From positions 1-64,000 of IMG/VR virus record IMGVR_UViG_3300003320_000620: 64,000 bases of DNA; one strand, given 5' to 3'. The position numbers and the translations under genes were made by a program. This document shows positions 972 to 34,031 of the stretch, in pieces. The notes beneath the pieces were generated by a model, which was given only the letters and a program-made list of their open reading frames with translations, was not told the origin of the DNA and did not search any database. This DNA is from a virus (lineage: Duplodnaviria; Caudoviricetes). The number at the start of each line of letters is the position of its first letter. Position 1 is the first letter of the stretch.

Positions 972-3449
972 TCACTTCTCCTCTTCAGTTTCTTCAGCTT
1001 CACTTTCGCTATTACGTCCAACCAATGACCAATAATCATTGGTCATCATTGCGGAATCAACAACGAAATTACCTAGAGCATAGTTTTGCGATATTAGCAC
1101 TGTAAAACGATCTTCGTCATTACGGCCAGCGGCAACATGCAGCCTTGCCAAGCCTAGTTTGTGCTCTTCCTCGGTTTGGCTATAGGTTATCACTACGTCG
1201 GCGTGGGCTACCTTTGAATACGCTTCTGCAGTATTCTCAAGCCCTACCTGTTTGGCTTTTTCGCCTGACCTGTTGCTCTGACTGACTATGGCCCCAGCAA
1301 TGTTCCGCTTGATCAAAAGCCCCCTAAGCTCCTTATAAGTTTCATCCAATGAAAGCCTGAAATTGTGCTTGTCTATTTTCATCAGGTCTGGGTAATCCAC
1401 TATTAACAATTCTGGCGTAAACCTGTGGGTGTTTTCCAAATTATCTAGGTAAGCTGCCAATTGAGGAACAGTTAACGCCCCTGTTGGGAACTGCTTCACT
1501 ACGATATTGCTGAATACCCTTAAAGCCCACCGATCAATAGATCGCTCCAGCTTTTTTCTGATGTTTGGGTCATCCATAGACATGGCAGGCGCAACCCTGA
1601 CATCCTCAAAGTCAGTGATCCTGCCTAATTTGTCACGGGCGAATTTGGTGACCTGTACTGGGTCCTTACGCTTGGCCAATGCCAGCATGGCTTGGAAATA
1701 ACGCTGAGAGCAGCGGTCTTCTGACATTTCAAGCGTGATATGGACCACCCTAACCCTGTGCATTAGGGCCATTTTGGCCAAATGAATGAGGCCCCATGAA
1801 TTGTGGACTACGATATTGTTTGCAACAAAGTTGTGGGTTCCTTCAACTGCAAGATCATAAGTTTCAGCCTCACCATGGGGTTTTATAGATACAACCCTGT
1901 CAAAGAAAATTTCACCAAACTGGTCACGTACCAAATAGGACAATCTATCAGGTCGACTGCCATTACCTGCAGCCATTTTAGCCAGTTTTTTACCTTTTGA
2001 TCCTAACAAACCAATTTCTTCATGTAGTTTTTTAATTTGACGGCGTCCTCTCACAAGTAAGGACCAACTGCAATAGGGGCACCCAGCAACTGTTTGCCAA
2101 CGTTCTCTGACTTTTGAAACAATTCCAAATCTTGTTAGCAAATTATTGATTTGCTGCATCAGCACAGCGCTTGTTGTGGAATATTCAAAGTCCGAATCAG
2201 CGTAAACTGAGCCGTCACAAGTAAACAAAGCCTGAAGAAAAACTGCAGTGTGTTCTTTGTCTAAAAGACCAAACCATTCAGGCAACTGCTTTTGGTTTGA
2301 CTTTTTTTCCATCAAACCATCACGCCTTAAAAGGTCAGCGACCAAATTACGGTCACCCTTTCCAACAACATAATAATGATCAGGTGCACCTTTTGCTTGT
2401 GTCAATGCGCAGTTATAGACACTAAGACAGCGCTCAAGATCAGTTACTATCTCCTTTTCTTGTTTTGTGAAAGTTGGCGTATGTGGTTTGCTCATACTTC
2501 CATCGGCTATCATATAACCTAATATCTTTAGGTATTCCTTTGAAGCAACCATTGTGCCAAAAGCAAGCCTTAGGGGAACAGCAATGCTATGCCCTACGCT
2601 TATTTCAGACACTGTTTTCCAACCATCTTTAGTAAGCAGACGATGGTTATTTGTGACAATCAGGGTACGCCCTGATCGCGTCTTAACCTCTAGAACAGGT
2701 TTCTTCCCATTAGCCGTAAGTTGTGCTTGTTTAGATTCAAACACACCAGTCGCTTCATTAAAGCTTACAACACAGTCCCCATCTTGTATATTTTCAATAG
2801 GAATGTAGCGGCCAGTATCTAATTGAACCAATGTCCCGACTGCAAGGCATTTCCCTCGCTTCGCATTGGCTATGAGCAACCACAGTTCTTTAGGAACTGG
2901 CCCTAAACCACGTCGGTCCAATTCAACAATGCCTGTAGGCATTGCCTGTTCACTAATATCAAGGAACCTTAGGGCACGCTTCTTATCATTAAGAAATGTC
3001 CCTGGGTCAAATAAGCTAAGCGAATTATGCCTAGAGCCAGCAATCAGCTTTTCAGCTTGTTCTAGCGATTCTTCGGTATCACGCTGCAGGGCTTTGGTTA
3101 GCTCAACAGCGACAGAACGCAGAGCCTGCCTTTTGATGTAGGTCTCAAGCTGAGATAGAACATATTCCCTATTGAGGGTGTCCTTTACAGCATGGATGCT
3201 ACCAATAATGTCAACGTAGAGTTGAGCTTCCCGCTTATTCTCACCCTCAAGCTTGTCAGTCAGCAGATCAGGTAGGTGGTCGCCAGCTGGCTGCTTAAAG
3301 CGGTCCAGGTAGTCATAGCATCTGGCAGCTATGACCCGGTAAGGCCCACCATAGAGTTCAATTGCTATGGCCCCCCTTACTATGGGGGCACCCTCCTTAT
3401 CAAAGGCAAGGAGGGTAATAATGTTCTCCTGTAGGGCACCAAGAAGCAT
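972..3449 (-). CDS. dnaB: DnaB-like replicative helicase, intein-containing
   Basis: Walker A ANAKRGK|S is split by an intein. Also HITLEMS, Walker B LLIVDYPDL, SQSNR and the C-terminal AAGRN motif, all typical of DnaB/RecA-fold helicases. Confidence 0.9.
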   Translation of the reverse strand: MLLGALQENIITLLAFDKEGAPIVRGAIAIELYGGPYRVIAARCYDYLDRFKQPAGDHLPDLLTDKLEGENKREAQLYVDIIGSIHAVKDTLNREYVLSQLETYIKRQALRSVAVELTKALQRDTEESLEQAEKLIAGSRHNSLSLFDPGTFLNDKKRALRFLDISEQAMPTGIVELDRRGLGPVPKELWLLIANAKRGKCLAVGTLVQLDTGRYIPIENIQDGDCVVSFNEATGVFESKQAQLTANGKKPVLEVKTRSGRTLIVTNNHRLLTKDGWKTVSEISVGHSIAVPLRLAFGTMVASKEYLKILGYMIADGSMSKPHTPTFTKQEKEIVTDLERCLSVYNCALTQAKGAPDHYYVVGKGDRNLVADLLRRDGLMEKKSNQKQLPEWFGLLDKEHTAVFLQALFTCDGSVYADSDFEYSTTSAVLMQQINNLLTRFGIVSKVRERWQTVAGCPYCSWSLLVRGRRQIKKLHEEIGLLGSKGKKLAKMAAGNGSRPDRLSYLVRDQFGEIFFDRVVSIKPHGEAETYDLAVEGTHNFVANNIVVHNSWGLIHLAKMALMHRVRVVHITLEMSEDRCSQRYFQAMLALAKRKDPVQVTKFARDKLGRITDFEDVRVAPAMSMDDPNIRKKLERSIDRWALRVFSNIVVKQFPTGALTVPQLAAYLDNLENTHRFTPELLIVDYPDLMKIDKHNFRLSLDETYKELRGLLIKRNIAGAIVSQSNRSGEKAKQVGLENTAEAYSKVAHADVVITYSQTEEEHKLGLARLHVAAGRNDEDRFTVLISQNYALGNFVVDSAMMTNDYWSLVGRNSESEAEETEEEK
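1800..2849 (-). mobile_element. Canonical class 1 intein with LAGLIDADG endonuclease (350 aa) in the DnaB P-loop
   Basis: Starts CLAVGTLVQL and has block B VTNNHRLL, ILGYMIADGS, FLQALFTCDGS and block F TYDLAVEGTHNF. Ends VHN followed by Ser(+1). Confidence 0.95.
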
Positions 3450-12894: not shown

Positions 12895-14628
12895 CTACTG
12901 GTTGCTGATAATGGTTTCGGTGTCTTCCTTAACCCGGTCAACCCGATCCTTCAGCGTAGTCATGGCCTTCTGCAGGCCACCATTAGCCGCTTCCTTCCGC
13001 AGGGTTTGGACCCCTGTGTTGGCTGACGCGGCCTGATTTAGAATCTCTGAGATATAATTCTGAAGCCTGTCAACCGACGTGGTATCAAGGGTGCCAATGA
13101 CATCCCTGAGCGCCGAAGCCAGCCGGTCAGCTGCTGACGGTGCCTTGACCTCCTTGTTAAGGAGAGCCAAGTGGTTTTTCATAGTTTGAGCGGATGTGAC
13201 AATGTCCTCACCGCTTAAACGCTTAGCCCGACGGCCGATCATACCAAGTTTGGCACGCTCAACACATTCACGGATACTGGCAGGGATTTGACCTGCCAGT
13301 TCCTCACCCGCCCTTGTAAGGTCAGCACCTTCTTCCAGAAGATCACCCGCGTAGTAGCAGATGAGTTTCTGGACAGTACCGGCCTGTGGCGCCCGCAGTG
13401 AGATCACGGCGTCCAGCCTGCCCGGTCGCAGAATGACCGGGTTCAGCTTTTCGACATGATTGGTTGTCAGCACCGTCATGATTTTGGCAGATTTGCTGAC
13501 CACACCGTCGATCACATTGATCAAATCATTCATTTGATCATTGCGCTCACTTGCGATGCGATCAATGTCCTCCGCAAAAACCACGGCTGGGGCATACCTG
13601 TTGGCAAATTCCAAGGCTGTGCGCAGGCCTTGAACTTTATCCAGCAGTACAAACGTCCAGCCTTCGCGCTCACAGACGTTGGCGGTCATGCGTGCCGTCA
13701 ACGACTTGCCGGTGCCAAACGGCCCTTCAAGCAGAACGCCCCGCTTGAGCGGGATTTTTAGCTTTACGCACAGGGCCGTCTCCTTGATTGGAACCAGTAT
13801 GTTGGTATTGATCTGGTTCTCAATATCAGCATCAAACAGAAGGTTTGCTTCTGTAGTATTGCTGACGTCAAGGAATTCAGGCGGGTGGCTCAGGTCCAGA
13901 TGACCCTCATCGTTGACACCGAGCCTGATAGCTTTGCCGCGATAAATGCTGTTGGTTTTAAGCAGGCGCCGAGTTTCCTCGGCCAGCTCAACCAACACGT
14001 GCTTTTCTTTCTTTGTCACCTCAGTTGAGATGTAGAAAGCTGGGCGGCCTTTCGAATCTTCCCCAAATCCCGAATGAACCAATTCGGTAATTCCAGGCAG
14101 TTTGAAGGCACCCATGGGGCACTGCAGCACGTCTTCTTCGTTTGGCCCCACCTTGATGCTGAGCATTGCAGGCGGCTGCGGCCCGAAGAAAGTCATGACC
14201 GTCTGTGGGCTGGCCCAACCGTAGAGGTTGGTCATGGCGCGCACAAAGGCCACTGCGGCGTCGTGAGGGTACGCATCAAAGTATTCAACAGCCTGAAATT
14301 CCTGGTTGTCATCATTGATGCGCCGCTGAAGCGCTTCGACTGCCTTTTCCATCGGCATTTTGGATGGGTCGTCCGGCAGCGTGATGGCACGCCCTGAATG
14401 TTCAATTGGAACTTCCAGTTTGTCCCACTGCTTTTCAGCCTTCTTCCTCAGTTCTTCCTCAACCATAGCGTTGAGGATGTCTGACCTCACTTCGTCACGC
14501 GTCTTTTCAACAGCTTTTGCCATTATTCTCTCTTCCTCCTTAGTGATAAAGGCAATAGAATGCCCTGAAGCACAACAAGTGCTTCCTAATGGGCTGAACC
14601 TGTCAGCCCATCGAGCTGCACTTTTCAA
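12895..14628 (-). CDS. AAA+ ATPase (classical clade; true start probably MAKAVEK near 14523)
   Basis: Walker A GVLLEGPFGTGKS, Walker B VVFAEDID, SRH TTNHVEKLNPVILRPGRLD. Confidence 0.9.
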   Translation of the reverse strand: MKSAARWADRFSPLGSTCCASGHSIAFITKEEERIMAKAVEKTRDEVRSDILNAMVEEELRKKAEKQWDKLEVPIEHSGRAITLPDDPSKMPMEKAVEALQRRINDDNQEFQAVEYFDAYPHDAAVAFVRAMTNLYGWASPQTVMTFFGPQPPAMLSIKVGPNEEDVLQCPMGAFKLPGITELVHSGFGEDSKGRPAFYISTEVTKKEKHVLVELAEETRRLLKTNSIYRGKAIRLGVNDEGHLDLSHPPEFLDVSNTTEANLLFDADIENQINTNILVPIKETALCVKLKIPLKRGVLLEGPFGTGKSLTARMTANVCEREGWTFVLLDKVQGLRTALEFANRYAPAVVFAEDIDRIASERNDQMNDLINVIDGVVSKSAKIMTVLTTNHVEKLNPVILRPGRLDAVISLRAPQAGTVQKLICYYAGDLLEEGADLTRAGEELAGQIPASIRECVERAKLGMIGRRAKRLSGEDIVTSAQTMKNHLALLNKEVKAPSAADRLASALRDVIGTLDTTSVDRLQNYISEILNQAASANTGVQTLRKEAANGGLQKAMTTLKDRVDRVKEDTETIISNQ

Positions 14629-16024: not shown

Positions 16025-16345
16025 TCAGTGAAGTGGCCGGTCTTCAACAGCCCTTTTCAGTAGGTCTTTGCCTAGCCTCTTCATTTCAGTGACATTGGAC
16101 TTTGCAATCAAACGCCCCAGACCTTTGCACAAGGCCTCCTTCAGGTCAGCCGGTACCGCAAGGCCTTTCCCAGGCATCCAAACATCATTTTTGTCTTTGT
16201 AAATTGTGCGGATGCTGAAGTAGCGTTGTCCTTTGAAGTCGCTAAGGTAGGCCACAACACGCTCACCATTTGGCTTTTCAGCCAATTCGCTGAAAGTGCC
16301 AGGGATGTGGTCGAAGCCCAGCTGAACAGTCATCTTTTTAGTCAT
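16025..16345 (-). CDS. PC4/p15-like ssDNA-binding protein
   Basis: VVAYLSDFKGQRYFSIRTIYKDKNDVWMPGKGLAV matches the PC4 fold signature (F.G..Y.DIR..Y...GEW.P.KGI). Confidence 0.8.
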   Translation of the reverse strand: MTKKMTVQLGFDHIPGTFSELAEKPNGERVVAYLSDFKGQRYFSIRTIYKDKNDVWMPGKGLAVPADLKEALCKGLGRLIAKSNVTEMKRLGKDLLKRAVEDRPLH

Positions 16346-16791: not shown

Positions 16792-17284
16792 CCTCCTTCC
16801 TTGGTTGAACTGAATAACCCGCTAAGCACTTCCTGGTTTCAGTTTCGTAGAGCATCATCAGGCACCAGCTAGTACCCAATTCAACACCAAGAAGCGCTCT
16901 TAGCAGGTAGAAAAAGCCTAGACTTATTGCGAACGCATTGATTGAACACCAATCAATTCTCAGGCGGTACTTTCTCATGATTCTCCAGCCAGTCGTTGAG
17001 GCCAAAAGCGAGTAAAGTTACTAACATCCCGCTCATGACACCTATGGCGTAGTAATACCACATTTCCCTACCTCCTTTGTTTAAGTCAACGTTAGGTTGC
17101 TTTCTTTGTGGCGCTTTGCTGTGCTTATCTTATGTGAATTATCTTCAGGCTGCACAGTATGTGCAGCCTGCCGTAGACCCAGTCAAAGGCCGTTGCAATG
17201 GCTCCGTAGTCATCCACACATACTACTTTCATGTAGCGGGTAGAGGCCTGATGTTTGGGGGGCCTTTTATGACGGTGCCAGTAT

Positions 17285-17617
17285 CTAATCCTGACTGTGT
17301 ATGTTTTCGTCACCGTTCCCACCTTTTCTTGTGCTTGGGAACCGCTTTTCGCGATCAAAGTGACCGTGTTGGGTGTAACCGTTCAGATCAATTACACCCC
17401 ACAAAAAGCTATTCCATCTTTCGCTGTTTGGTGCCCTTGGCGATCTCAGCAGGTAAAAATCCCAAACTGAGGTATTGATCACCAGTTCCTGCACTTTCCT
17501 GGGTAATGCAGCATACTTCAGTGGTCCTTTTACGATTGTGGCCCGGTCATGTTTCAGCATTTCACGCGGGAACGGAGGCCGCCCGAAAGCGACGTAGTTG
17601 TACGGCTTATCGCCCAT
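17285..17617 (-). CDS. Hypothetical protein
   Basis: 110 aa with GGAGGGG SD, inside the first long-range stem. Confidence 0.6.
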   Translation of the reverse strand: MGDKPYNYVAFGRPPFPREMLKHDRATIVKGPLKYAALPRKVQELVINTSVWDFYLLRSPRAPNSERWNSFLWGVIDLNGYTQHGHFDREKRFPSTRKGGNGDENIHSQD

Positions 17618-17719
17618 TTACCCCTCCTTTTGTTTCTTTCAATTTGAAAGCGCCACAAAAAGAGCAACCTAGTGTTCACAAAGACTCAGGCTGCCAGTTT
17701 TGAGGCGCCTTTAGATTGT

Positions 17720-17953
17720 TTATTTCCTGCTGTAGATGAGTAGGTAGTTGCATCCTTTTGCCCTGATATCTGTTATGGCAGGGCAGCTGTCACATCTTCC
17801 TTTCGTGTAGAATTTGTTGGGCTCGTCAATGGTCAAGCGTTTGCCACAGCCATCACAGGTGAACTTTTGATAGACTGTGCCACCCTTCTCAATCCATTCA
17901 CGGGCCGTTTTTGCTACATCGTCAAAAGGAAAGTCAGGGGCTTCTTCCGTCAT
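17720..17953 (-). CDS. Small Zn-ribbon protein
   Basis: Part of ORF 17720..18025 (likely start MTEEAPDF) with CDGC...CDSC. Confidence 0.65.
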   Translation of the reverse strand: MTEEAPDFPFDDVAKTAREWIEKGGTVYQKFTCDGCGKRLTIDEPNKFYTKGRCDSCPAITDIRAKGCNYLLIYSRK

Positions 17954-18128
17954 TTGCCTATCCTGATCCTGCGTGGAAGGCACCCCAGTGGGATGATGGC
18001 TAACAGCCCGCCGTACTGATAGCAATAGAGGCGCGTTGCAGTACGGAAGTATGTTATCCTCCCACTGGCGATGTTGTAAGCCAAAACGTGGCCATCATGC
18101 TGTTCAAGGTGCTTCATTTCAGCCCCTC

Positions 18129-18323
18129 TTAATTGTCCGCAAAGTAGCGGCAATTGAAACATTGGCATTTGTGGCCATGAATTGCTGCGCTGGCGTGCCA
18201 AGTCGCTGGCTGGCCCCCTGATTGTTCGTCAGCAAAGCAAAACCACGCTATCTTTGCGTGGTTTTCAGACGAAGTGTTTATGCTGGCTCGTGTTAAGTCT
18301 AACCACTGCTTTAAGGTCTTCAT
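18129..18323 (-). CDS. Small hypothetical protein
   Basis: 64 aa, AAAGGA SD, C-terminal HKCQCFNC. Confidence 0.5.
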   Translation of the reverse strand: MKTLKQWLDLTRASINTSSENHAKIAWFCFADEQSGGQPATWHASAAIHGHKCQCFNCRYFADN

Positions 18324-18424
18324 GTGTCATGTGTCCTTTCATAGATGAAAGGCGCCCCAAGACAAGCAGCCTGAGCTTTGTGAGATACTGACACCAGCCA
18401 GCTTTAGGGTGCTTGGATTATCAT

Positions 18425-18652
18425 CTACTTCTTGCTTTGCTGAAACAAAGCAATTTTCTCTATGTATTCAGGTGGGAATGGGCAGTCATACAGCTTTGCC
18501 ATGGTTTGGCAAATTACTACCTCAAACCCTTTTTCGATATTGCAGGCCCAGGTGTTGACTACCAAATTCCACTCACGCGGATCATGTGGCTTGTCTATGC
18601 CGTAAACGTTGCAGGCAAAAGCATGTAGCTCATCTGGTGATCTCATTTGCAT
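18425..18652 (-). CDS. Small hypothetical protein
   Basis: 75 aa, AAAGGA SD; exactly fills the loop of the third inverted-repeat pair. Confidence 0.55.
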   Translation of the reverse strand: MQMRSPDELHAFACNVYGIDKPHDPREWNLVVNTWACNIEKGFEVVICQTMAKLYDCPFPPEYIEKIALFQQSKK

Positions 18653-19235
18653 TTCAGGGTGTCCTTTCAGGTTGAAAGCACCCTAAAGCAAGCCGGTGTC
18701 AGTATTTATCACATGGAGGAGGAGTGCAAGCTTGCTGGTATGGTGTAACGTTGCGCTGTGAACCTGTCACGGCCAGGGTGCGTAAAAGATATCACCTCAG
18801 TTGGTCAGATGTGATTATGTGCCGCAACCTGAAAACCAAACCCTGTAACTATTGTGTTTTTGTATTGACAACCTTTTGATGTAACGATTCAAACCTCAAC
18901 TACCCTAGTATTAGACCTTATGCAGGGTTAATGTCACCAAGCAGTTTTGGATTCACTGTTTGTTTGACTACCTGTTAGATCAGCGCGCAACACAGTGGCC
19001 CGCCTTGAGTGGAGTGGGGCGGGAGTTTTACGTAAGGGCTAGTTGATTGCCAGTATCAGGCAATGTCAGGTGAAACCATTACAGGGTACGGCATGCTCAG
19101 GCATGCACGGCACACGCGGCCCAGTAGGGCAGCAGACGCCCATGGGCAGCATAGCTTGCAACCGGGCGCGCGGCACTTAAGCCACCCTAACCCCGGTACA
19201 ACCATCATCCTCACGCCCCTATCTGGGGCACCGCT

Positions 19236-28855: not shown

Positions 28856-29166
28856 TTTTTCCTCACTCAACGCAGGTATATGCTCAAAGCCAGGGCGAGA
28901 TAGGCAACCAGCAATCCAGAGTAGTGCCCTGTTGCCCACAGCCAAGCAGGTTGGCCTGTATCCTTCCATTTAAGGTAGGTGTAGGCTGTACAGGCAATCA
29001 GTAGTCCGCTCCCTATCAGAAAGTAGGGCATTCCCATGTCTTTGCCTCCTGTTATGTTTTCGCTTTATTGCTTTACGAACGCCAGCACGCCATCTGCGCC
29101 AGCGCTTTGCCTTCCTACACAAAGCATCAAATTCACTTCCGCTTATTAAGCGGGTTCTATGGCCCA

Positions 29167-29769: not shown

Positions 29770-30252
29770 ATGCCCTGGATCGTAGCCTTAACGAAGCCAA
29801 ATCAGGAGCACATAGCCTGCGAAAATCTTTCGCGTCAGGGCTTCCAGTATTATTGGCCTCGTTTCAGTCAAAAAAGACCTAACAAAAAGGATGTTGTTTG
29901 CAGTCTGTTTCCTCGCTATCTTTTTGTTCTTATTTCACAAATTTGGTATCCATTAACAGGGACAAGGGGTATTTCAAAAGTGCTATTAGGAAATGATGGA
30001 CCCCTAATTCTACCGGGGTCAGAACTAGACAATTTGAGAAAGCGTGAAGGGGTGAATGGCCTCATTCAGCTTTCGCCACTCCCTCCTAAATTCCAGAACG
30101 GCGACAAGGTCAAGGCAACAGAAGGTGCTTTGGCTGGCCACCTGTTGATCTATGAGGGGATGACTGCTAAGGACCGTTGTCGTGTCCTAGCCCAGCTGCT
30201 GGGTGGGCACGTTCGCGTAGAACTGGACGAAAAGCTGCTGGTGGCAGCTTAA
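29770..30252 (+). CDS. RfaH/NusG-paralog transcription antiterminator
   Basis: NGN domain (WIVALTKPNQEHIACENLSRQGFQYYWP...LFPRYLFV) plus KOW domain (FQNGDKVKATEGALAG). Confidence 0.9.
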   Translation: MPWIVALTKPNQEHIACENLSRQGFQYYWPRFSQKRPNKKDVVCSLFPRYLFVLISQIWYPLTGTRGISKVLLGNDGPLILPGSELDNLRKREGVNGLIQLSPLPPKFQNGDKVKATEGALAGHLLIYEGMTAKDRCRVLAQLLGGHVRVELDEKLLVAA

Positions 30253-30554: not shown

Positions 30555-30725
30555 ATGGCTAAGAAGAGCTACTCGGCTAAGGCGGCTGCTGCAGGCAAAG
30601 ACATTGGAAAGCCTGGGAAGAACTTTTCGAAAATTGCTGAAAGCGCTGGCAAGAAGTATGGCTCAGCCGAAGCTGGTAAGCGCGTAGCTGGTGCTGTGCT
30701 GGCCAAGCTCCGTAAGAAGGGCTAA
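30555..30725 (+). CDS. Small basic protein (56 aa)
   Basis: MAKKSYSAKAAAAGKDIGKPGKNFSKIA...VAGAVLAKLRKKG; below the ORF-track size cut-off. Confidence 0.7.
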   Translation: MAKKSYSAKAAAAGKDIGKPGKNFSKIAESAGKKYGSAEAGKRVAGAVLAKLRKKG

Positions 30726-31923: not shown

Positions 31924-33342
31924 ATGGCTAGCTATTACGTCCGATCAGGTGCTGCCGGTGCTGGCACGGGGGCTGATTGGGCCAATGCCTATACGACGCT
32001 GACGGCGGCCGTATCGGGCAAGGCGGCTGGCGATATTTTCTACGTGTCGGAGGATCACAATGAATCGACTGCTGGTGTGGTGACAATTACGTCGCCGGGG
32101 TCACTTACTAGTTTCTGCTTTTTCTATTGTGTCGATCATAACGGAACTGTCCCGCCAGTATCTGCAGATTTAAGAACAACTGCTCAAGTATCAACAACGG
32201 GCAACAACATCCTTTCGGTTAACGGAATCGGGTATTTTTACGGGATAATCTTTTCGTCCGGTAGCGGGGCTAACTCAGTAAATTTCGTAGTCAACAATAC
32301 GAATACATCTCAACAAATATATGATTCTTGCGCTTTGCGTCTTGGTGGAACTTCTGGCGGCCAATTGCAGTTGGGGCGAACCAATGCTCAGGTTACATTG
32401 AATAATACAACGTATCAGGTATCTGCATCAGGGTCTACGATAGCAGTCGCTGGACCAACCGTATGGAGAAATACACCGTCTGCCATTACCGGAGCGACGT
32501 TACCAACGAATCTAATTTCAGGCGGGAATACGGACCTGAACCTCATTATGATTGGTGTTGATTTGAGCGCTTTGGGTTCCGGCAAAACGATCTACGGTGC
32601 TGGATCAGTTAGCGGGTTCGCTAGACTTATCGATTGCAAATTAGGTGCCTCCGTGACAGTGGCGGGCACAATCTCAGGTCCTGGGCGATATGCAGATCTC
32701 GTAAGGTGTGACAGCGGGGCAACGAATTACCGAGATGAGAGGTATTGGCTCCAAGCAATTCAGACAGTTGAGACAACGATTGTTAGAACTGGCGGGGCCA
32801 CTGACGGAACAACACCAATTAGCTGGAAAATCGTAACAACTACCAGTGCTAAATGGGTTGGTCCATTCGAATCCCAGCCCATCACCATCTGGAACGACTC
32901 CACATCAGCCATCACCACGCTGACGTTCTACGGCACCACGACAGGCGGAGGTGTGCCGAACAACGATGACATCTGGGTAGAGGTGGAATACCTCGGATCG
33001 GCGTCAACGCCGCTGGGCTCATTTGTAACTACGACCAAGAGCAATAACCTAGCTCCATCTACTACGACAAATAATTCCTCTGACGGCTCTACGTGGGGTG
33101 GCGGCGGTGCTGGGAATGGGTTCAAGATTGTGGTGCCTTCGTTCACACCTAGAATGAAAGGGCCGCTCAACATTACAATCAAAGTAGCGAAGGTGAGCAG
33201 CACTTATTACATTGATCCGCGCCCTGCAATAAACGGCGTTACAGTTTCAAAGTCTGAAATTCTGGCCCCTGGTGTCTATGCCAACGAACTAAGCAGTGGC
33301 GGTCTTGTTCGTAACCCTAGTCTTGCTGGGGCTGCGCAATGA
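31924..33342 (+). CDS. Putative virion fibre or spike protein (beta-helix-like)
   Basis: N-terminus YYVRSGAAGAGTGADWANAYTTL..A...GD is typical of beta-helix proteins; T/S/G-rich. Confidence 0.65.
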   Translation: MASYYVRSGAAGAGTGADWANAYTTLTAAVSGKAAGDIFYVSEDHNESTAGVVTITSPGSLTSFCFFYCVDHNGTVPPVSADLRTTAQVSTTGNNILSVNGIGYFYGIIFSSGSGANSVNFVVNNTNTSQQIYDSCALRLGGTSGGQLQLGRTNAQVTLNNTTYQVSASGSTIAVAGPTVWRNTPSAITGATLPTNLISGGNTDLNLIMIGVDLSALGSGKTIYGAGSVSGFARLIDCKLGASVTVAGTISGPGRYADLVRCDSGATNYRDERYWLQAIQTVETTIVRTGGATDGTTPISWKIVTTTSAKWVGPFESQPITIWNDSTSAITTLTFYGTTTGGGVPNNDDIWVEVEYLGSASTPLGSFVTTTKSNNLAPSTTTNNSSDGSTWGGGGAGNGFKIVVPSFTPRMKGPLNITIKVAKVSSTYYIDPRPAINGVTVSKSEILAPGVYANELSSGGLVRNPSLAGAAQ

Positions 33343-34031
33343 AACTTAATGTTCCTCTTGGGGCTACATCTTATATAACTCAAATTTTTATTCAGGATTC
33401 TTCAAGCACGACTGGGGCTGGCCTAACTGGACTTGTGTTTAATTCTTCAGGTTTGACTGCCTATTATCACCGAGATACCGATACAACAGCTACTGCGATT
33501 ACTCTTGTCACAATGACAGTTGGCACGTTTACGTCATCAGGATTTAAAGAGATCGATTCTACGAATATGCCAGGATGGTATCAATTCTGTCCGCCAAATG
33601 CGGCACTAGCTTCTGGGGCTAAGTCCTGTGCCTTCCATCTAAAAGGCGCAACCAACATGGCGCCATTACCGATTGAGGTGCAATTGGTAGCTTATAACCC
33701 TGACGATGCAACATCCCTTGGTTTATCTCGTCTTGATACTGCTGTTTCTACACGCGCTGCCCCCGGCGATGCAATGGCCTTAACATCTTCTGAAAGGAAT
33801 TCTACTGCAGATGCTTTTCTAAATCGAGATATGTCAGTAGGGGCCGATTCTGGTTCTTCAACCGTTCGAACGGTACGACAAGCTCTTCGTTTCCTTCGAA
33901 ATAAGTGGACTATTGTTACATCTACATTAACTGTTTACAAAGAGGACGATAGCACAACGTCTTGGACTGCAACTGTTGGCACTGATCCATCTGCTGTACC
34001 AATAATCTCTAACGATCCAGCAGGTCCTTAA
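33339..34031 (+). CDS. Putative virion structural protein
   Basis: 230 aa, T/S-rich, coupled to the fibre gene. Confidence 0.65.
   Translation: MKLNVPLGATSYITQIFIQDSSSTTGAGLTGLVFNSSGLTAYYHRDTDTTATAITLVTMTVGTFTSSGFKEIDSTNMPGWYQFCPPNAALASGAKSCAFHLKGATNMAPLPIEVQLVAYNPDDATSLGLSRLDTAVSTRAAPGDAMALTSSERNSTADAFLNRDMSVGADSGSSTVRTVRQALRFLRNKWTIVTSTLTVYKEDDSTTSWTATVGTDPSAVPIISNDPAGP

Follow-up and report, generated by a model that had tools for sequence, protein, structure and literature searches.

In bacterial rRNA operons, long-range helices flank the 16S and 23S rRNAs and serve as the processing stalks of RNase III. The early mRNA of phage T7 has the RNase III sites R0.3 to R1.3, and such classical phage sites are local hairpins. 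Synthetic toehold switches (Green et al. 2014) reportedly employ a hairpin that hides the ribosome-binding site or AUG and that a trigger opens, from a 5′ toehold, by strand displacement. Long-range pairing between mRNA ends is, to our knowledge, documented for just a handful of bacterial mRNAs, those of icaR, hbs and the type I toxins. Here, we analyse a locus that is like each of these in some respects: a chain of three inverted-repeat pairs in an uncultured phage from a root metagenome (Duplodnaviria; Caudoviricetes; IMG/VR record IMGVR_UViG_3300003320_000620), studied in a window that comprises the first 64 kb (positions 1 to 64,000) of the 88,094-bp single-contig record. The three pairs frame groups of early genes. 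We consider it reasonably probable that they act in cis as long-range helices of the sense (minus-strand) early polycistronic RNA, looping out exchangeable gene cassettes, probably as sites of RNase III cleavage or of RNA stability, and freeing the ribosome-binding site.

The documented cases differ in how the two ends are used. Type I toxin mRNAs (hok/Sok, aapA/IsoA) combine a 5′–3′ long-distance interaction with co-transcriptional, metastable hairpins at the Shine–Dalgarno (SD) sequence (bioRxiv 10.1101/615682). The 5′ and 3′ untranslated regions (UTRs) of the Staphylococcus aureus icaR mRNA pair through a 7-nt motif, controlling translation and RNase III cleavage (PMC3868564), and a 14-bp helix between the UTRs of the Bacillus subtilis hbs mRNA controls translation and RNase access (PMC5737220). 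On the side of gene arrangement, the PeSLs of T4-type phages are conserved non-coding motifs between the small non-essential genes of the hyperplastic early region, situated at boundaries of insertion, deletion and replacement (PMC2839356). Among the rRNA stalks, the icaR and hbs helices and the type I toxin mRNAs, there is no case of gene-framing helices chained within a phage operon around cargo that can be exchanged; the new element at the present locus is the chain together with the slot behaviour.

IMG/VR classes the phage genome as linear and 97% complete. Minus-strand genes span from ~18.7 kb down to 1 kb of the window and plus-strand genes begin near 20.5 kb, which places the repeat chain at the 5′ end of a leftward early operon. 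The pairs follow each other head to tail within 1.6 kb, and all six arms are intergenic in one co-directional block of minus-strand genes. A repeat search gave the following pairs and arms, with 5′ and 3′ in the sense of the RNA:

17074-17117 / 17647-17690: pair C, 44 nt at 77%, with a core (17093-17117 / 17647-17671) of 25 nt at 92%.
17685-17712 / 18348-18375: pair A; extended (17676-17712 / 18348-18383), 37 nt at 86%.
18385-18414 / 18676-18705: pair B, 30 nt at 90%.
18676-18705, minus strand: 5′ arm of pair B (B′); the nascent RNA is predicted to leave its outer half unpaired.
18385-18414, minus strand: 3′ arm of pair B, starting 10 nt past a stop codon.
18348-18383, minus strand: 5′ arm of pair A (A′), with a 1-nt gap to the 3′ arm of B.
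17676-17712, minus strand: 3′ arm of pair A, starting 7 nt past a stop codon and overlapping the extended C′.
17647-17690 (core 17647-17671), minus strand: 5′ arm of pair C (C′).
17074-17117 (core 17093-17117), minus strand: 3′ arm of pair C, running into the SD of the next gene.

Read in the sense of the RNA, a 75-aa gene lies between B′ and B, genes for 64, 55 and 77 aa lie between A′ and A, and a 110-aa gene (with a doubtful 35-aa open reading frame, ORF) lies between C′ and C, after which comes a 36-aa membrane peptide. The loops measure 529-530 nt (C), 635-636 nt (A) and 261-262 nt (B), and adjacent arms are separated by 1 nt (18383 to 18385) and 4 nt (17671 to 17676), the extended arms overlapping. 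The preliminary description of the locus, made by reading the sequence, had reported this head-to-tail order with arms 1-4 nt apart and whole ORFs in loops of 530, 635 and 261 nt, and the measurements agree with it; the ORFs inside are on the minus strand. The geometry of the module is constant, with the 5′ arm followed by 23-29 nt that contain an SD hairpin and then the AUG, and with the stop codon followed by 7-10 nt and the 3′ arm. When the whole 88,094-bp genome was compared with itself by BLAST, the three pairs were its top three inverted repeats (41.1, 37.2 and 37.2 bits); the next best within a 3-kb span reached 29.5 bits and the bulk at most 25.7 bits.

The pairing is predicted to be specific. 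The three 5′ arms are mutually homologous, as are the three 3′ arms, and each 5′ arm nonetheless finds its best match in its own 3′ arm: true partners pair with −52.7, −57.9 and −45.9 kcal/mol, against −19 to −33 kcal/mol for the other combinations. The minimum free energy (MFE) fold of the 1.7-kb sense RNA holds all three helices (28, 34 and 24 pairs), with ensemble probabilities of 0.90-0.95. By these calculations, which the preliminary description had proposed as a check, each arm is specific to its own partner, and the helices are the dominant feature of the equilibrium fold predicted for the early transcript. Energies from RNAduplex alone are too noisy for genome-wide detection, chance pairs reaching −45 to −56 kcal/mol. 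Pairs A and B have a common non-canonical motif, 5′ GCUUG opposite 3′ CUGGC, and the positions around it covary.

Like the rRNA stalks, the predicted structures are serial helices of at least 20 bp between the flanks of each unit of what would be one polycistronic transcript, and with 24-34 MFE pairs and −46 to −58 kcal/mol they attain the at least about 20 bp by which such stalks join the flanks of their units. Unlike in the rRNA operons, what is looped out here is protein-coding genes that bring their own ribosome-binding sites; neighbouring helices touch or overlap, and cleavage is something that we infer. The likeness to the T7 sites lies in the early polycistronic phage mRNA, the double-stranded elements between genes, the mismatches inside the helices and the expected outcome of stabilised single-unit mRNAs. 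The T7 hairpins are local, however, whereas the strong pairing here spans 260-640 nt. At the junction of B and A′, local folding is no better than in shuffled sequence (z 0.24), and therefore the repeat pairs do not look like ordinary intergenic hairpins of the T7 kind; a local hairpin at the junction of A and C′ has −32 kcal/mol, against −46 and −58 kcal/mol for the long-range pairs with which it competes.

Further support for the pairing comes from related phages. Searches with the terminase and the helicase led to a large family of soil phages (genomes G1 to G11 and contigs numbered with L below), across which the distal early operon is syntenic and the proximal part is not. Among the proximal early proteins, only the product of 16025-16345 (minus strand), which matches the fold of PC4/transcriptional coactivator p15 (PF02229, 29.9 bits), is in common with relatives, namely G7 and G8. 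No close relative of the repeat region itself was found in INPHARED (blastn in near and distant modes, tblastn) or in IMG/VR (searched with the 110-aa cargo protein and the helicase). At the equivalent place, G2 has a 21-nt pair (95%) around an 86-aa gene, pair Y, with the geometry seen in the window and a recognisably homologous SD hairpin, UCAAACCUGAAAGG. The orthologues of this 86-aa gene, taken with their fetched contexts, revealed three types of arms:

Pair Y, type I: TTGATTATTAGCAGGGGCATC / GATGCCCCTACTAATAATCAA
Pair Y, type II: TGATCACTTACATGATGGGGCG / CGCCCCATCTTGTAAGTGATCA
Pair Y, type III: TGATCACTTACATGAGTGGGCA / TGCCCACTCTTGTAAGTGATCA

An arm of pair Y is 0.95 identical to its own partner and 0.39-0.43 identical between types. 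At least two Watson–Crick pair types occur in 11 of the 23 aligned columns; types II and III differ by three double substitutions, all fully compensated, and the central mismatch (C.A or U.U) keeps its position. Compensatory change is also seen in the upstream pair X, with a loop of 367 nt, and in a downstream gene-less element, p3, which has arms of 20-28 nt and a loop of 100-150 nt and occurs in G2 (33724-33864; 13724-13864 in L052), G3, G4, L150 (1389-1529) and L171. The p3 helix, 20-28 bp long and mismatched at a conserved central position, is found immediately upstream of AUCAAACAGGAGGA-N-AUG of an early gene; its insertions and deletions are compensated and its internal hairpin covaries, which makes it a candidate conserved cis-regulatory RNA of the phage family. 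A head-to-tail chain is found in L154 too, where the 3′ arm of Y and the 5′ arm of a next pair, Z, overlap. G2 and L150 have practically the same arms and the same ~125 nt of leader (~100% identity), compared with ~85% for the coding sequence. The same module is thus maintained in related phages by compensatory change, independently of its cargo. The covariation called for by the preliminary description is thus present at the level of the family, in modules Y, X and p3, where it is of the kind that marks a structured RNA; for the window's own three stems, orthologues were not found and compensatory change is seen between the paralogues only.

Because sequence varies between pairs and between types while complementarity is kept, the selected property is nucleic-acid base pairing and not a site for a protein. 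That the arms are paired sites, operators or iterons, to which a DNA- or RNA-binding protein attaches is accordingly barely credible: inverted sites beside genes can loop DNA, and the PC4-like protein, of a single-stranded-DNA-binding kind, is encoded 0.7 kb downstream of the chain (16025-16345), but a protein site would conserve its sequence rather than its complement, and here arm sequence differs for each pair and each orthologous type. Several features favour pairing in the sense RNA: the placement of the arms in UTRs of one co-directional block, their fixed spacing from start and stop codons, the attached SD hairpin, the independence of cargo and the conservation above coding level. Single-sided changes lean the same way, in small but consistent numbers. 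Between close relatives, they give G.U on the sense strand in all three cases (3/3), and all four of the independent pyrimidine or purine mismatches read U.U, not A.A, on that strand (4/4).

An assembly artefact was considered as the source of the pairs and rejected, since a second assembler, in the independently assembled Logan contigs of run X1, reproduces arm C whole, A′ nearly whole and the first bases of arm B with no differences, and since arms of type Y are found again in assemblies from NCBI, JGI, ENA and Logan. The listed Logan contigs stop at 17678 and 18393 and contain neither arm B′ nor most of arm A.

We also put little faith in the pairs being neutral relics of duplications or insertions with no present function in RNA or DNA. 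The chain is confined to this genome, its three units are paralogous, its cargo genes are ORFans and several relatives have no strong pairs, all of which speaks for relics. It would, on the other hand, have to be accepted that three relics are the best inverted repeats of the genome, all of them intergenic and equally spaced from start and stop codons, that the homologous module in relatives is kept by compensation and conserved above coding level, and that pairs A and B have kept a non-canonical motif in common amid covarying flanking pairs.

As a separate observation on the G2 module, a GC-rich hairpin with a U run, resembling an intrinsic terminator, lies at 33060-33087, with only 8 nt between it and the 5′ arm of pair Y downstream. 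Homologous sites exist in L150, L153-L155 and L171, and the hairpin covaries between lineages; transcription might enter the framed cassette by read-through or antitermination, or the hairpin might act as a 5′ stabiliser.

How the helices might affect translation is suggested by the short stretch between each 5′ arm and its gene. A small CUUUCA-N3-4-UGAAAG(G) hairpin comes after every 5′ arm, and its 3′ strand is the SD in units B and A:

18650-18690, minus strand: unit B hairpin, −19.5 kcal/mol, core CUUUCA-ACC-UGAAAG, sequestering the SD GAAAGG (18668-18663) and the AUG (18652).
18335-18352, minus strand: unit A SD hairpin, CCUUUCA-UCUA-UGAAAGG, 5 nt of which belong to the 5′ arm.
17621-17650, minus strand: unit C hairpin, CUUUCA-AAU-UGAAAG at 17636-17650, followed by a strong SD, AAAAGGAGGGG (17621-17631).

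In predicted nascent folds of the 5′ UTRs of all three units and of the G2 unit, the inner part of the 5′ arm sequesters the SD and the outer half of the arm is left free; in unit B, the AUG is paired as well, and in unit C it is the CUCUUUUUGU stretch of C′ that pairs with the SD of the 110-aa gene. On adding the 3′ arm, the predicted probability of an unpaired SD rises from 0.18 to 0.26, from 0.02 to 0.35 and from 0.01 to 0.79. As modelled, these values fit a toehold-like displacement that would open the ribosome-binding site once a cassette is fully transcribed.

The mechanism that we propose has three steps. During transcription of a cassette, the 5′ arm would fold locally with its inner half onto the SD region and leave the outer half single-stranded. 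The emerging 3′ arm would then nucleate on this free half and displace the local hairpin, giving a more stable long-range helix and an open ribosome-binding site. Each helix would be of 25-37 bp with one or two conserved non-Watson–Crick positions and would join the 5′ UTR of the cassette to a site 7-10 nt past its last stop, the operon leader folding into three consecutive closed loops. Finally, a helix of at least 25 bp would be a natural substrate for the RNase III of the host, and cuts would yield separate, end-paired and stabilised cassette mRNAs, with the downstream genes insulated from the cargo of the loops. Since host RNase III is expected to act on helices of 25-37 bp, processing into end-paired units is plausible; a gene for RNase III was not found in the phage genome. 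Action in RNA rather than in DNA, the translational switch and cleavage by RNase III are all three inferred from the arrangement and the predicted structures.

The proposed switch has in common with the synthetic toehold switches a hairpin that hides the ribosome-binding site, a free 5′ single strand and a complementary trigger; it is unlike them in that the trigger would lie in cis at the 3′ end of the cassette, in a natural sequence, and that the mechanism is a predicted one. Similarly, the type I toxin mRNAs are of small genes, and their transient 5′ hairpins sequester the SD and yield, after transcription, to a stabler pairing of the 5′ and 3′ ends. There, however, the final pairing keeps the SD closed and activation proceeds through 3′ trimming and an antisense RNA, whereas here the predicted final state frees the SD (its accessibility rises with the 3′ arm) and the units form a chain within an operon; a gene for an antisense partner was not identified, and no Rfam family matched the chain region. 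With icaR and hbs, the locus has in common the intramolecular pairing between both UTRs of a bacterial mRNA, but theirs are single helices in monocistronic mRNAs, and here helices of 25-37 bp stand three in a row in a phage operon.

Some further observations concern these hairpins and the signals around them. The weak TTGNNN motifs that are visible by eye in the 5′ arms and recall a −35 element were rejected as promoters because transcripts starting there would have no SD. Hairpins of the form YUUUCA-N-UGAAAGG-N6-12-AUG, containing the SD, recur at early-region genes of G3 (+7365), G6 (+7747), G7 (−10711) and G10 (+9960), in coordinates of the oriented upstream regions built for the relatives; a terminator-like hairpin is often found upstream of them, and long-range arms were not detected there. 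In IMG/VR, a search with the pattern of the SD hairpin returned chance matches only. Upstream of the chain, a run of CUCCUCCUCC (18713-18722, minus strand) forms 8 bp in the MFE fold with the SD region of the 36-aa gene (17067-17075); this predicted pairing would close the whole chain and may be due to chance. On the plus strand, a strong terminator-like hairpin lies at 18999-19023, in the gene-poor stretch upstream of the chain, and implies a short plus-strand transcript (a small RNA or a small ORF) opposite the leader of the leftward operon.

The loops hold the following cargo, and one further gene comes after the chain:

18425-18652, minus strand: cargo of loop B, one 75-aa ORFan with no homologue found.
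17720-18323, minus strand: cargo of loop A, three genes at 18129-18323 (64 aa), 17950-18117 (55 aa) and 17720-17953 (77 aa).
17125-17617, minus strand: cargo of loop C, the 110-aa gene at 17285-17617 and the doubtful 35-aa ORF at 17125-17232.
16953-17063, minus strand: gene after the chain, encoding the 36-aa membrane peptide.

For the 110-aa and 75-aa proteins, a search of 5.8 billion proteins returned only the query itself; the former has a weak match to phrog_11674. The 77-aa product of loop A is a zinc-ribbon protein with 492 homologues, whose contexts are too short for use.

In the relatives, the same arms frame different loop contents: one gene in G2, two genes in L150 and, with identical arms, an unrelated gene in L171. 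Moreover, G3 is without 33100-33724 of G2, i.e., the cassette and the next gene, and the junction falls in a TGATTAT common to the starts of two successive 5′ arms; this insertion/deletion begins inside one 5′ arm and ends at the next, not at both ends of one pair. The preliminary description had named sites of DNA cassette exchange as its alternative, and of this the different cargo within the same arms and the boundary at arm starts held up, with no recombinase and no inverted variant to go with them. The arms might then serve DNA exchange alone, as boundaries or short homologies for swapping cassettes that would shuffle a hyperplastic region in the manner of T4 PeSLs or integron cassettes, and their complementarity would be a by-product, left for example by a circular cassette opened in the middle of a palindrome. 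Besides the variable cargo and the G2/G3 junction, the head-to-tail order beside the presumed promoter end recalls repeated insertion at a single site, and shuffling mediated by PeSLs, with mini-circles, is documented in T4-type phages (PMC2839356). A role in DNA alone is nevertheless unlikely, though not negligibly so. A split palindrome leaves unexplained why compensation has continued (in 11 of 23 columns and three double substitutions between types II and III), as it does the conserved positions of mismatches and the conservation of arms above coding level; helices of the p3 type close loops of 100-150 nt that hold no gene, and the G2/G3 insertion/deletion misses the outer ends of a single pair. 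Neither a tyrosine recombinase (PF00589) nor a serine recombinase, resolvase or invertase was found in the 97%-complete genome, and the arms, inverted and specific to their partners rather than direct repeats, have no core conserved in all of them.

The resemblance to PeSLs is that non-coding motifs between small genes coincide with boundaries of insertion, deletion and replacement. PeSLs, however, are direct repeats of a promoter with a local terminator stem-loop, whereas here the repeats are inverted and partner-specific, and the promoter and terminator scan of the chain found no site of either kind in the arms or junctions. Since arms mark the boundaries of cargo exchange in the relatives, a recombinational role like that of PeSLs may coexist with the role in RNA. 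Other mobile arrangements fit poorly. Integron cassettes with attC sites are not indicated, PF00589 being absent and the arms having no common core, and neither is a miniature inverted-repeat transposable element (MITE) or transposon, as no direct repeats lie beside the three framed units and the G2/G3 insertion/deletion does not match the ends of a pair. It seems highly improbable, too, that the arms are crossover sites of invertible segments that switch early cassettes on and off in the manner of the G segment of phage Mu or of a shufflon. Inverted-repeat flanks are classical for such segments and three adjacent ones do recall a shufflon, but besides the absence of an invertase, integrase or other recombinase from the genes found in the genome, arm sequence varies from pair to pair although a single recombinase would require a single site, and inversion would just silence genes that have no promoter. 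Among sequencing runs, the sequence was listed for one DNA run, probably that of the source root metagenome, and for no RNA run; neither inverted variants nor joints were seen in the contigs of that run, which are identical to the window (contigs only, depth ~4), and pair Y has the same orientation in 10 of 10 contigs (nine and L171, with four distinct arm types). Circularisation of the RNA units, which the preliminary description had raised, finds no support; neither RtcB nor an RNA ligase was found in the phage.

Several results weigh against the reading of the pairs as helices of the sense early RNA. Strong long-range pairs were not found in most relatives, including the nearest ones (G1 and, in part, G3-G11), and the cargo genes have no orthologues in the relatives, so that the window's three stems do not lend themselves to an orthologous test of covariation. 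The antisense RNA folds almost as well, with helix probabilities of 0.89-0.93 and summed duplex energies of −153.3 kcal/mol for the plus strand against −156.5 kcal/mol for the minus strand, and thermodynamics therefore cannot tell which strand acts. The preliminary description had taken an excess of G.U pairs on the minus strand as a pointer to RNA pairing. Its counts are exact, the nine substitutions between arms giving five G.U on the minus strand, two C.A (G.U on the plus strand) and two U.U, but five against two is not significant; over all pairs, G.U against C.A stands at ~6 to 5, a weak discrimination of strands. The local hairpin that competes at the junction of A and C′ counts on the same side, as does the promoter scan, which did not locate the promoter of the operon. 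In another respect the scan speaks for the reading: within the chain, where the genes are co-directional, it gave just one weak promoter-like site, at 17165-17138 inside loop C, and no minus-strand terminator-like site. Lastly, the local folding energies at the three start codons are unexceptional, at the 5th, 33rd and 49th percentiles of 107 other start regions, and the translational switch is, for this reason, a matter of structure prediction.

A bolder proposal, which is tentative and which we hold to be somewhat unlikely, extends the RNA reading to the whole family. The early leader would contain an "RNA-framed gene slot", a conserved long-range helix with a ribosome-binding-site hairpin that loops out ORFan cargo brought in by recombination, and would act at once as a cis toehold switch, an RNase III excision site and an insulator of essential downstream genes, its arms doubling as homology for exchange; the window would hold three such slots head to tail. 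If the RNA reading holds, some phages could, with a single element, gain new early genes freely and express them under control and insulated from the rest of the operon, and nature would have its own equivalent of synthetic toehold switches and RNA insulators. What distinguishes the locus is the combination of three chained gene-framing helices, a covarying module found across the family and exchangeable cargo, and the chain offers a clonable 1.7-kb system for the interplay of long-range mRNA folding, RNase III and translation.

Elsewhere in the genome, the fourth-best inverted repeat (29027-29047 / 30593-30613; 21 nt, 90%, 1546 nt apart) flanks a divergent region in which a NusG/RfaH-like gene (29770-30252) heads the late operon. 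Farther along the early operon, a 577-aa AAA/nSTAND-type ATPase (12895-14628, minus strand; phrog_10440) matched 19 loci, its relatives, on many soil metagenome contigs, being 54-69% identical over the best aligned segment; it appears to be mobile, since no relative's contig has a neighbouring gene in common with this phage. The gene for the DnaB-like helicase (972-3449, minus strand) contains an intein at residues 213-550, with Intein_splicing and LAGLIDADG domains; the intein is missing from the 470-505-aa orthologues of G1-G5 and G7-G11 and is found in G6, where an 822-aa frame matches at 57% over its full length.

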